From assembly GCA_003614675.1 (NCBI GenBank), contig ML002292.1, positions 1 to 46,704 of the forward strand: a stretch of DNA of 46,704 nucleotides, read 5' to 3'. Shown piece by piece: positions 37,224-40,834 of this stretch. The stretch is from Dimargaris cristalligena (lineage: Eukaryota). Position 1 is the stretch's first letter; every line of letters begins with the position of its first letter. Under the pieces are notes generated by a model. It saw only the letters and a list, made by a program, of their open reading frames with translations. It was not told the DNA's origin and made no database searches. A program made the position numbers and the translations under genes.

Positions 37224-40200
37224 CTAGTACAGTGCGCCAGCCGAGGATAACCTTCGTTGCACCCGGCTAATTCCCTGGCGGAGGCTAGTCAAGCTATTAC
37301 AAGAGAGATGCATAAGAGAGTGGAAATTGAAAATCTTCAATATTAATTACATTTAAGCGGGGAGGGGGAATATATCTTTAGTGAGTTGGAAGCAACCTCT
37401 TACCGAATGATGAAAGGTCGAGAGAAAAATAGTAATGGAATGCCAGTTAAATAACTTACTTTTGTCGCACCAATTCTCGTTCTTCCCGGTCAATTGTGGC
37501 GATATAATTATAATCTATTGGGCCCTCCCCTACACTCAGGGGCGGACTCAATTCCGGAACTGGGGTAGTCGATATTGGTGATAAGTCGTTTAGGGCTACC
37601 ATGGGTAGTTTGTTGTAGTTAGAGGTTCAATAATAGAGGATATACGTGAGCTAAGCATTTAGATAAAGGCGCACTACACTAAACCGGGTGAAGCATATAT
37701 ATATATATGGGGTATAGGTATGTGGAGAGGGGGGGGTAGTATAAATATATCTAGTCCTTCACCTAATCCACCAACTTACTATTGACTAGAGTGCGCCCGG
37801 AATACAGCTGTCGAGTAGGGTCGGTGGTATCCCCTGACTTTTGGGCTAGGGTGGCTGGGCGGGGGTCGGATGATGCGGATTCTGGCTCTTTCCTTTGAGA
37901 GGTCTTTGAGGAGTTCGGCCGTTTCCGCCGAGAAGGGGAAGTCAGTTCGGCGCGGTGCTGGTGATCGCTAGCTCGCCTTGGGGGCCGCAGGTTGGGCGGG
38001 GACACATGGGTTTCAGTCTGCTCCGGGGGAGGGGGTTGGATAATGGGGTTCTGGAGGAGCGGGTTAAGAAATAATGATTGTAGGGATATGAGTCAGAAAG
38101 ATCACAAATACTCGGTTAAGTAAGTAAGATCCCACCTATATAAACAGGTTCGACGAATAATTGATTTTGAATTAGATGCAGTGTAGGCATTTATAATGAA
38201 AGGAATACTTACGTGAAGAGAAGCGAGCAACTCGGCCAGTGGGTACACTTTGATTATGAACGGGGAAAATACGGGAACCACAGCCAACAGGCGACTGCAG
38301 GTTGACAGGGTCATTTGGATAATCTATCGTAATAATGGCAACAATAAAGTCCATAACTATTGTATTAGAGTTAGTTACCCTATAGTTTCTAGCGCGCTAT
38401 ATTGTATGGCATGGAGTTAGGAATTTCCACCGAAGGGTACTGAAAGGTACACGGTGACATGGATATGGGCCACCCCAGTCGAAAATCACAAACTTACGGA
38501 GAAAGAGAATCCGACATGGACGAACCGGGAGTCGGCTACATTTAATAAGTATAGTCGCCCGGTTAAGGTCATAATGGCCAAGATCTAGAGCAACGGGGTA
38601 GTAACGAGATGGATAGGTGGGGCAGTGACCATGGGGCATAGGCATCCAAAACTAGTGATAGAGTTAGTTCCTGGTGATTATGAATGCCCTGGGGGGAAAT
38701 GCCGATAATGGCCGCGGGATTAGTGCGAGTGTATAAAGGGCCAGTTTACCACCCCTTTGGCTACTTACCTCTGATGAGCCAATAAATTCCATTTGGGCGA
38801 TACCGTCGCCCAATACGGGTGTCGTAAATTCCTGGACCAAAGTTTCCGAGGGTATATGCCAGACCCATAACGACATGGTCCTTTAGATCCGTGCACGCGC
38901 GGGGGGGGGAGTGGGGGAATGATACGGGGAAGATTAGGGGTTAAAAACAGGGAATTGCATAATCGAAAGCCGTCACTTAGAAACAGGGTTGATGTCCAGC
39001 GGAATTGAAAACCCCTGCGTTTATTAGGAGGTTTTCCGACAAGTCGAATTAGGGGACACATCATCGTGAGCTGAACTTACCTTCCACTTGCCACAATATA
39101 GCGCGACTGGCGGCTAGCGGTGAACCCGGTCAACCGGGGGGATACTGCACTGACTCGGGCGTTGAATTGGACTTCCCGGAACGGATCGTCCAGGGTATCC
39201 AGGGTCGTTACCGGGGGTGGCTTGATTTTCCAGACTTTGACGAACGTTTGGGAATCCCAAATTACGATAGTGTCGGTATCAAAACAGGCCATAACATAGC
39301 GACCGCACCGGGAATATTCCGCCTAGGGGAGATGGGAGGGAGAGGGGGGGGATAGCATGGGGTAGTATTAATACCATTAGGCATTTTCGAATGAATCACA
39401 CATAAACAAGTGTAGCTTATACCAAAGAAGCGGGTATAGCTCATACAAAAATTGGACTTACCTGAAGAATAGTTGCTGGTTGGGCGGGTAGAACATGGAG
39501 CTGAGCCCAAGACTGGGTATCCCAAATAATGATGTTTTCGGGGCATACCGAGAGACACTGAGGATAAGTCGGATGGTTGCTGATGCCAATGGGGGGTGAT
39601 GGATGGGCGTTTGGCCGCGTACAAATTACGCTAGCCGTATCTAGAAGTAGCCATGGGTAGTCGTAAAGAATTAGGATTGTTTATGATTAGAAAGACGCCC
39701 CAAAGCTATACTAACACTTCCCCATCTCTCCCAGCCATGTTCACGGGTAATGTCGATATCTAAGACTAAACTTACTGTATTTAAACACTTTGATTGAACG
39801 ATTTGACAGGCCAAATATGAAAAAAGGGTTCGCGGCGGTTGGTTGACCTATAGCGGTAGCTGAAATACCGGTCCGGGCGATTTGCTTATAGCTGTACGGT
39901 GCATGAAGCGGCAACATCGGGTATGGATACCAAAATAAAAACGTATTAATACAATCATTTAAGGCTAGTTGTGCGTAACTATTTCTCGGGACCTTAACCA
40001 CTCAGTGGTGGGACTTTGGGAATTTCCGAATAAATGTAATTTGCGCCACCATTTATACCAAGCCACCATCCGCAGTGAATCGGGGACACTAGGGAAAAGG
40101 GTAGAATCAACGGGGTGATATATATATATAAAAAGGACGAGATCAATATAATTGAAAATCCGTTTTTTGCATGAACATTTCTACTTACCGATTATTGTCC

Positions 40201-40834
40201 CAGTCCAATACCCATATATCACCCCGCTGATCCGCCGCCAGTAGACCGCCGAACAGGTCCCCGTCGACATTCAGGGCCATGGACCAGCCGATCACGCTAA
40301 ACGGAATTTTCTGGGCCGAGCAAAACCTTTTGGTCGGATGGGCGGGGGTTACGCATGGAGGAGGGGCCCGGTCGCCGTTCTCAGTGCCTCCCATAGCGCC
40401 ATTCGCAGGTGGTGGTTCATCGGTGTGGTCGGGTGCGGAGGTCGGTGGAGGTAGGATGGGCCGAACCGTATTTTCAATGGTGATTAAACAGCGATGGGGA
40501 CTGTCCCCGTGAGTAGTCCTATGTGGTCGAAGGGGAGTTCATGTAAATACATATACCATTGAATAAATAAAGCATTCTACCGTGCCCGTGGTATATATAT
40601 CCACGTGGTGATAGATGCCAAGCGGGGGTAAGACGGAATCGACCGGCCTTTTTTGTAAGTCCAACGTAATGGGCGGACTTTAAAAAATCAAGACCCCGGG
40701 TTTATCCGGAAACCCCGTACGAATGGGAGAAGCACGTTTTACCTTTCAACTTGGTCGCGAATAGAACTTGCCTCGAATAGGGGGCCGCGCTTACGTGGTA
40801 GTAGATAAAGGCGGTACGACCCGTGCTCGTCCAT
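37224..40834 (-). CDS. WD40 protein similar to the TBC1D31/WDR67 N-terminal propeller but lacking the TBC domain, 11 exons, ~581 aa
   Basis: Exons 40834-40743, 40518-40189, 39891-39776, 39640-39462, 39322-39081, 38880-38769, 38584-38498, 38323-38213, 38050-37780, 37595-37460, 37293-37224. Total 1746 nt, no internal stop, all GT-AG (nine GTAAGT donors). Segments LLAADQRGDIWVLDWDNNRYKQIARTG, FIFGLSNRSIKVF, IIIWDTQSW, MACFDTDTIVIWDSQTF, SRYIVASGR, LWVWHI, GIAQMEFI parallel TBC1D31 in order (from recalled sequence). Confidence 0.8.

Follow-up and report, generated by a model that had tools for sequence, protein, structure and literature searches.

What can be left of a centriolar protein in a fungus that has no flagellum? 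This question is raised by a gene on the minus strand (40834..37224) of a 46,704-nucleotide contig of Dimargaris cristalligena (ML002292.1, assembly GCA_003614675.1; this whole 46.7-kb stretch is called the window below). We found that the gene very probably encodes a WD40 propeller derived from TBC1D31/WDR67, without the Rab GTPase-activating (RabGAP-TBC) domain of that family. D. cristalligena is a non-flagellated mycoparasite of the Dimargaritales (Kickxellomycotina), and its lineage lies within the large clade of fungi without flagella, the ancestor of which is held in PMC8371127 to have lost the flagellum once. The original prediction, made from the letters of the window, had linked the gene to a vestigial centriole-like microtubule-organizing centre in case the host should prove to be a non-flagellated fungus, which the D. 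cristalligena lineage is.

Splicing by coordinates with a script joined 11 exons across 10 introns into a coding sequence of 1746 nt, which encodes 581 amino acids (aa) followed by a single terminal stop. All 10 introns are bounded by GT and AG, with the donor GTAAGT in nine and GTAAAA in one, and are 135-297 nt long. The 11 exons, the GT-AG sites, the 581-aa product and the exons of 116 and 179 nt given by the original prediction were all reproduced in this way. The gene model is not due to chance, because a protein of another genus, the 605-aa P0002 of Dispira simplex, aligns with the spliced product end to end (residues 1-574 of the product with 1-604 of P0002, 47% identity), and because P0002 matches the window by tblastn in six separate, co-linear stretches that together comprise exons 1-8.

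Exon 1 (40743..40834, 92 nt, minus strand as are all the others) begins with the ATG at 40834-40832 and encodes residues 1-30, the first propeller strands; it ends at the GTAAAA donor, and its N-terminus is matched by P0002 and by P0027, a protein of Tieghemiomyces parasiticus. Exon 2 (40189..40518, 330 nt, residues 31-140) holds a Pro-rich insert at about residues 51-97 and the start of the blade that carries the DQRG motif of the family. It is followed by exon 3 (39776..39891, 116 nt, residues 141-179), exon 4 (39462..39640, 179 nt, residues 180-239), exon 5 (39081..39322, 242 nt, residues 240-319), in which the start Met of the public protein model lies, and exon 6 (38769..38880, 112 nt, residues 320-357). 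The frame through exon 7 (38498..38584, 87 nt, residues 358-386) is gapless against P0002, and exon 8 (38213..38323, 111 nt, residues 387-423) encodes the final propeller blade. Exon 9 (37780..38050, 271 nt, residues 424-513) encodes a linker rich in Pro, Ser, Thr and Arg; exon 10 (37460..37595, 136 nt, residues 514-558) encodes the end of the linker and the start of a conserved C-terminal helix; and exon 11 (37224..37293, 70 nt, residues 559-581, stop codon TAG at 37226-37224) encodes the Arg-rich end of this amphipathic helix, a continuation that is common to P0002. Short (AT)n runs occur at 37695-37712 and 40118-40135, both within introns of the gene.

Two other ways of splicing the locus were considered. 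A 12-exon model of 596 aa, with an exon 1 of 40 nt and an extra exon 2 of 97 nt, is open and has canonical junctions; we rejected it, as two relatives match the longer exon 1 gaplessly and without the 97-nt exon. Enumeration of other open frames between exons 6 and 9, including a 154-nt exon, likewise gave several open combinations, among which only the pair of 87 and 111 nt fits the relatives.

The public annotation of this gene is incorrect: it is partly mis-spliced and leaves out the 249 N-terminal residues. A word-based search with exon 5 gave a single match among 53 candidates, the 317-aa 'hypothetical protein BJ085DRAFT_31412 [Dimargaris cristalligena]', which corresponds to residues 250-566 of the 581-aa model at 91% identity, residues 1-249 lying outside it. 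It starts at a Met within exon 5 and has odd mini-exons in place of exons 7 and 8. For its last exon, the same donor, at 37460, is joined to an acceptor near 37134, so that the 70-nt exon 11 is skipped and a tail of 10 residues is added. This 3′ end looks wrong, because the Dispira protein has the same continuation of the helix as exon 11 encodes.

To which family the propeller belongs became apparent from an exhaustive phmmer search of 1.84 billion representative proteins (E<=1e-3), with the public 317-aa piece as the query. The search returned 10 proteins including the query itself; of the nine others, eight belong to the TBC1D31 family and one is a compositional match. No WD40 family other than the TBC1D31 type was found at this threshold among these representatives. 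P0002 is 49% identical to the query, and P0003, P0005 and P0007, relatives or fragments, are 51-61% identical to it; P0004, a low-complexity repeat protein, matches the linker alone, in 13 stretches. Two more distant matches, P0006 (1052 aa, E 4.4e-7) and P0008 (944 aa, E 6.5e-6), have the propeller followed by a RabGAP-TBC domain (PF00566, 49-51 bits against a cut-off of 25.2). P0010 is a 358-aa fragment, the C-terminal 217 aa of which match P0006 after its TBC domain. P0009 (843 aa) is TBC-less, and it, P0002, P0003 and P0005 give propeller Pfam models only.

A profile search with source names identified P0008 as a protein of the blastoclad Paraphysoderma sedebokerense. Source records give the name TBC1 domain family member 31 to its relatives in Synchytrium, Geranomyces and the starfish Patiria, all of which carry PF00566. 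P0008 itself matches two Tetrahymena TBC1D31 chains (PDB 9qzc and 9qzf) with 205 and 223 bits.

The spliced 581-aa protein gave phmmer scores of 139 bits with P0008, 135 with P0006, 130 with P0016, 120 with P0011, 111 with each of P0013 and P0014, 71 with P0012 and 60 with the starfish protein P0015. The alignment with P0008 is one contiguous stretch through the whole propeller (residues 123-490 against 90-453). In contrast, of 11 generic WD40 proteins compared with the spliced protein, 6 matched it, none scoring above 28 bits altogether or above 12 bits in any one stretch, and the other 5 did not match. The N-terminal exons, which lie outside the search query, align co-linearly to the same TBC1D31-type proteins, including the DQRG motif, and therefore provide independent support for both the gene model and the homology. 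The motifs that the original prediction had quoted from the gene are present in the spliced protein, and a starfish TBC1D31-like protein has corresponding motifs at the aligned positions. Judged by sequence, the propeller descends from that of TBC1D31/WDR67, and the family assignment rests on the HMMER matches to proteins of zoosporic fungi.

The predicted protein begins with a WD40 propeller (about residues 1-50 and 98-425); about 113 aa of linker follow, and an amphipathic helix of about 40 aa closes the C-terminus. From the last blade to the end of the protein there are 156 residues, about 43 of them beyond the linker, which is composed of 17% Pro, 14% Ser, 11% Thr and 10% Arg; the peak helical hydrophobic moment of the entire protein lies at residues 555-572. 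The Pro-rich insert at residues ~51-97 (28% Pro; window positions 40225-40365, minus strand) is present in three proteins of the Dimargaritaceae and not in the TBC1D31-type proteins. An AlphaFold2 model of Dispira P0002, built from a 14-row alignment, had a mean predicted local distance difference test score (pLDDT) of 72. In this model the propeller (residues 1-50 and 110-440) has about 30 strands and is mostly above a pLDDT of 90, residues 54-109, the region of the Pro-rich insert, and 451-564, the linker, are disordered (pLDDT below 50), and residues 565-604 form a single terminal helix (pLDDT 84-92). Foldseek matched the model to seven-bladed WD40 chains of the PDB with a probability of 1.0 and template-modelling (TM) scores, by target, of 0.6-0.8. 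On the strength of the model, the window protein is predicted to have a WD40 propeller fold of the seven-bladed type.

Like the TBC1D31/WDR67 proteins of animals, Tetrahymena (TBC1D31A and B) and chytrid and blastoclad fungi (including P0008 and the 'TBC1 domain member 31' of Geranomyces), the window protein has a full, co-linear propeller with the DQRG motif and a disordered linker; its propeller is 27-30% identical to those of the zoosporic-fungal proteins. Unlike them, it is 581 rather than 800-1122 aa long, has the family-specific Pro-rich insert, belongs to a host without a flagellum, has a helix of about 40 aa in place of the long C-terminal helix or coiled coil, and lacks a RabGAP-TBC domain. 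Generic WD40 scaffolds (COPI beta-prime, WDR5, PRP46/PLRG1) share its fold; the sequence link is absent (at most 12 bits per stretch, against 139 for P0008).

We could find no trace of the TBC domain in the window. PF00566 had no Pfam match on the exons of the gene, nor on the full-length P0002. TBC1D31-type proteins, compared by tblastn with the entire window, matched the propeller exons only, and the post-propeller parts of eight such proteins gave nothing in the window below E 0.7. None of the 14 longest open frames of the window encodes a TBC domain; the domains found in them are of the glucosamine-6-phosphate isomerase type, amidohydrolase, pyridine-nucleotide oxidoreductase, amino-acid permease, Fe-hydrogenase-like, Sec10, F-box, DNA polymerase delta subunit and copia gag/pol. 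Downstream of the stop codon, about 37 kb are thus free of a TBC domain. Immediately downstream, there is a gap of 594 bp (36630..37223) without TBC-like coding, beyond which lies a convergent gene (34162..36629, plus strand) for a divalent-cation transporter of the SLC41/MgtE type, with PF01769 matched twice (49.1 and 64.7 bits, the cut-off being 27.6). The last open frame of the transporter gene reaches 36629 and so stops 594 bp short of the stop at 37224. Nor was the long C-terminal alpha-helix or coiled coil of TBC1D31 found, the ~43 residues after the linker having no significant match to the coiled coil of the full-length proteins. As the whole TBC domain is absent, so is the RabGAP signature with its arginine and glutamine fingers, and the predicted protein is neither a Rab GAP nor able to act as one.

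What the original prediction had said of the protein was borne out in part. The propeller homology to TBC1D31/WDR67 is supported by phmmer, by the Pfam domains of the matches, by their named relatives and by the co-linear alignment; the best distant matches are WD40 plus TBC proteins with relatives named TBC1D31, rather than another WD40 family. The lack of a RabGAP-TBC domain holds for the protein, for the 594-bp gap and for the window; the SLC41 gene predicted about 600 bp away is indeed there, with two MgtE domains; and the Pro/Ser linker and short amphipathic C-terminal helix are present in the composition and in the hydrophobic moment.

A second search with source names assigned P0002 to Dispira simplex, and P0003 and P0027 to Tieghemiomyces parasiticus; like Dimargaris, the two genera belong to the Dimargaritaceae. 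These proteins (605 aa in Dispira; models of 383 and 395 aa in Tieghemiomyces) share with the window protein the TBC-less build, 47-50% identity, the N-terminus and a motif at the start of the terminal helix; they are hypothetical and undescribed, and the Tieghemiomyces models look truncated or mis-spliced. Between Dimargaris and Dispira, identity is 60% in the propeller, 48% in the N-terminal strands, 33% in the linker and 35% in the tail. We built a maximum-likelihood tree of the propeller region (13 rows, 343 columns, midpoint rooting for drawing only), in which the five TBC-less rows, from the three genera and P0009, split from the eight TBC-bearing rows with support of 99/96; the branches of P0009 and of the starfish row are long, and their exact positions unsure. 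A single TBC-less clade with a common build fits one old loss of the TBC and coiled-coil part, after which the predicted remainder was conserved. P0003 and P0027 are near-identical (branch lengths 0.005 and 0.013), lie on different contigs and each lack a different part of the gene; the pair may reflect a recent gene duplication, two haplotypes or a doubling in the assembly. Searches of metagenome contigs for further relatives gave 78 pattern matches with P0002 as the query and 165 with a smaller alignment, of which none was confirmed in either case. No paper connecting TBC1D31/WDR67 with these fungi was among the best-ranked matches of full-text literature searches, and 'centriol' and 'spindle pole' are absent from the main text of the Kickxellomycotina genome paper PMC9866270. 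The family and the fold are already known; what is new is the conserved, propeller-only form predicted here in a flagellum-less lineage.

The original prediction had further called the protein 'internally deleted'. This part was not supported. The helix-start motif is common to the window protein, P0002, P0003/P0027 and P0009, and the tail has no significant place on TBC1D31. A hidden Markov model (HMM) of the tail, run on nine full-length proteins, found its best spots mostly just after the TBC domain, at 0 bits or less, against 3.3 for the best of 180 shuffles. Smith-Waterman alignment of four tails with eight full-length proteins gave scores mostly inside the range of shuffled tails. The exception was the tail of P0009, which aligned to the first conserved TBC motif in 5 of the 8 proteins, scoring 45 and 42 where the shuffled maxima were 40 and 44. 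Residues ~825-841 of P0009 resemble this motif (the LPEN..DAF region) of full-length TBC1D31, and the end of P0009 may be a vestige of the lost TBC domain, hinting at truncation. With an HMM of the region before the TBC domain and of its start, the tails of the window protein and of P0009 scored -4.5 and -1.5 bits, in the expected order, the best of 500 shuffles reaching 2.0. As the sole suggestive result favours a cut at the start of the TBC domain, internal deletion is unsupported; no placement of the tail is significant, and truncation at the start of the TBC domain appears at least as likely as internal deletion.

What might a propeller of this kind do without the rest of TBC1D31? In PMC12506977, TBC1D31 is described as a structural component of the A-C linker of centrioles. 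In the isolated Tetrahymena centrioles studied there, two TBC1D31 paralogues pair through their Rab-GAP domains, and these domains bind the POC1 C-terminal helix and touch the C-microtubule at its alpha-tubulin; the long C-terminal helix of TBC1D31 forms the central filament of the linker. Human WDR67, with CCDC77 and MIIP, is reported in PMC12290023 to make up an A-C-linker complex that is required for triplet cohesion and duplication. The parts lost in Dimargaris are those that bind tubulin and POC1 and that form the filament, and the propeller is kept; the triplet-dependent parts are, therefore, gone, and the docking module is retained. By analogy, the window protein would be a non-enzymatic docking scaffold, the propeller of which would bind a coiled-coil partner while the terminal helix would anchor or pair the protein; its most likely site would be an acentriolar spindle pole body. 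We take the spindle pole body as the most economical guess, given that a centriole-like ring has been reported in that of Coemansia reversa, a member of the same subphylum (the review PMC6070874, citing McLaughlin et al. 2015, gives the composition of the ring as unknown). On its own, docking at a microtubule-organizing centre is a tentative proposal for the window protein, which we would not call probable. The explanation that we prefer as a whole, and consider rather likely, is that the gene encodes a TBC1D31-derived, TBC-less propeller acting as a docking scaffold, likely at the spindle pole body. A more specific form of it, in which the WD40-only TBC1D31 would be a surviving piece of the A-C linker, docked at the spindle pole body on a CEP135-like coiled-coil protein, and the first molecular marker tying the kickxellomycete ring to the ancestral centriole, is speculative, and we give it little weight.

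Several observations weigh against the docking-scaffold explanation and have to be set beside it. Its functional part argues by analogy with a ciliate structure. All ten junctions rest on the sequence and on the alignment of relatives; the fold was modelled on the Dispira relative, a 47% identical proxy for the window's own protein; and every named TBC-less protein belongs to a single family of fungi, so that the range of the gene may be narrow. A profile of the TBC-less proteins, run against the PDB sequences, gave generic WD40 proteins as all of its best 60 matches, scored by summed repeats, and the Tetrahymena TBC1D31 chains were not among these 60. Both Atlas searches led to generic WD40 clusters, a TBC1D31 cluster appearing only in row 6 of the structure list with a TM score of 0.53; the Foldseek matches were generic seven-bladed propellers; and the Pfam WD40 models, scanned on single exons, all fell under their cut-offs (the best, PF24817, with 15.8 bits against 109.9). 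These methods detect the fold and not the family.

Among the competing explanations, the one that survives best accepts the descent of the propeller from TBC1D31 and places it away from any microtubule-organizing centre, where it would be a WD40 adaptor of general use, for example in the scaffolding of ubiquitin or kinase pathways or in a lineage-specific process linked to mycoparasitism. We regard this as possible, if short of likely. WD40 propellers serve as versatile platforms for binding, conservation is poor in the linker and tail of the window protein (33-35% identity), and named examples of the gene have so far come from one mycoparasite family only. Human TBC1D31, as reported in PMC8126939, also works off the centriole wall, at centriolar satellites, where it scaffolds praja2, PKA and OFD1. 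Its praja2-binding site, however, is residues 940-970, at the extreme end of the C-terminal helix (PMC8126939), and this region of the long helix has no significant counterpart in the window protein; nor does anything in the present results point to another process.

It is unlikely that the TBC-less state is apparent only, the TBC and coiled-coil part being encoded elsewhere through a split gene or a mis-assembled contig, or in a full-length paralogue. The TBC searches covered the window, and a TBC-bearing paralogue or a separate TBC gene could lie in the remaining genome; moreover P0006, a full-length WD40 plus TBC protein, has no assigned host. P0006, however, shares 44% identity with a chytrid protein over 982 columns and only 32%, in the propeller alone, with the Dispira protein, and the exhaustive search gave no Dimargaris protein beyond the 317-aa model (judged by identity values only). 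The TBC-free ~37 kb downstream of the stop, the closeness of the convergent gene and the termination of the Dispira protein at the same helix also speak for a genuine absence.

That the gene is a decaying, functionless relic in which stop codons have not yet built up is very improbable. It is true that the ancestral structure, the centriole, is gone and that two thirds of the ancestral protein are missing; against this stand the open frame over 11 exons with 10 intact splice pairs, the 60% identity of the propeller to that of another genus, compared with 33% for the linker, and the maintenance of the build in three genera and in the far more divergent P0009. That it encodes a generic WD40 protein, resembling TBC1D31 by chance or convergence, is scarcely credible: the PDB profile search, Atlas and Foldseek do all give generic WD40 proteins, but these are outweighed by the single whole-propeller alignment to P0008, by the absence of other WD40 families from the exhaustive search and by the co-linearity of the N-terminal part that the query did not contain.

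The remainder of the window holds three further features. The upstream neighbour on the same strand (42173-44058, minus) has a PF18018 OB-fold and a PF04042 subunit-B domain and is probably the small subunit of DNA polymerase delta, split by introns. Two adjacent frames at 45050-46336 (plus) encode a copia-type gag (PF14223, PF13961) and a Pol beta-barrel (PF22936), a piece of a long-terminal-repeat retrotransposon near the end of the window. At 24849-26561 (plus), a 570-aa frame contains the C-terminal domain of the Fe-only hydrogenase large subunit (PF02906, 212.7 bits); fungal proteins with this domain are presumably, as a rule, Nar1, the cytosolic Fe-S assembly factor.

The replacement of the centriole by the spindle pole body in fungi is still poorly understood, and the composition of the Coemansia ring is described as unknown in the review PMC6070874. 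TBC1D31/WDR67 has only lately been assigned to the A-C linker that holds the microtubule triplets together (PMC12290023; PMC12506977). The survival, in a flagellum-less fungus, of a predicted TBC1D31 relative that is without the microtubule-binding and filament-forming parts and retains the docking propeller may represent a molecular leftover of the lost centriole. The locus gives a concrete gene of the Kickxellomycotina for functional study, and a natural experiment on the propeller acting alone. If docking at the spindle pole were true, the protein would be the first molecular link between the centriole-like ring of kickxellomycetes and the ancestral centriole.

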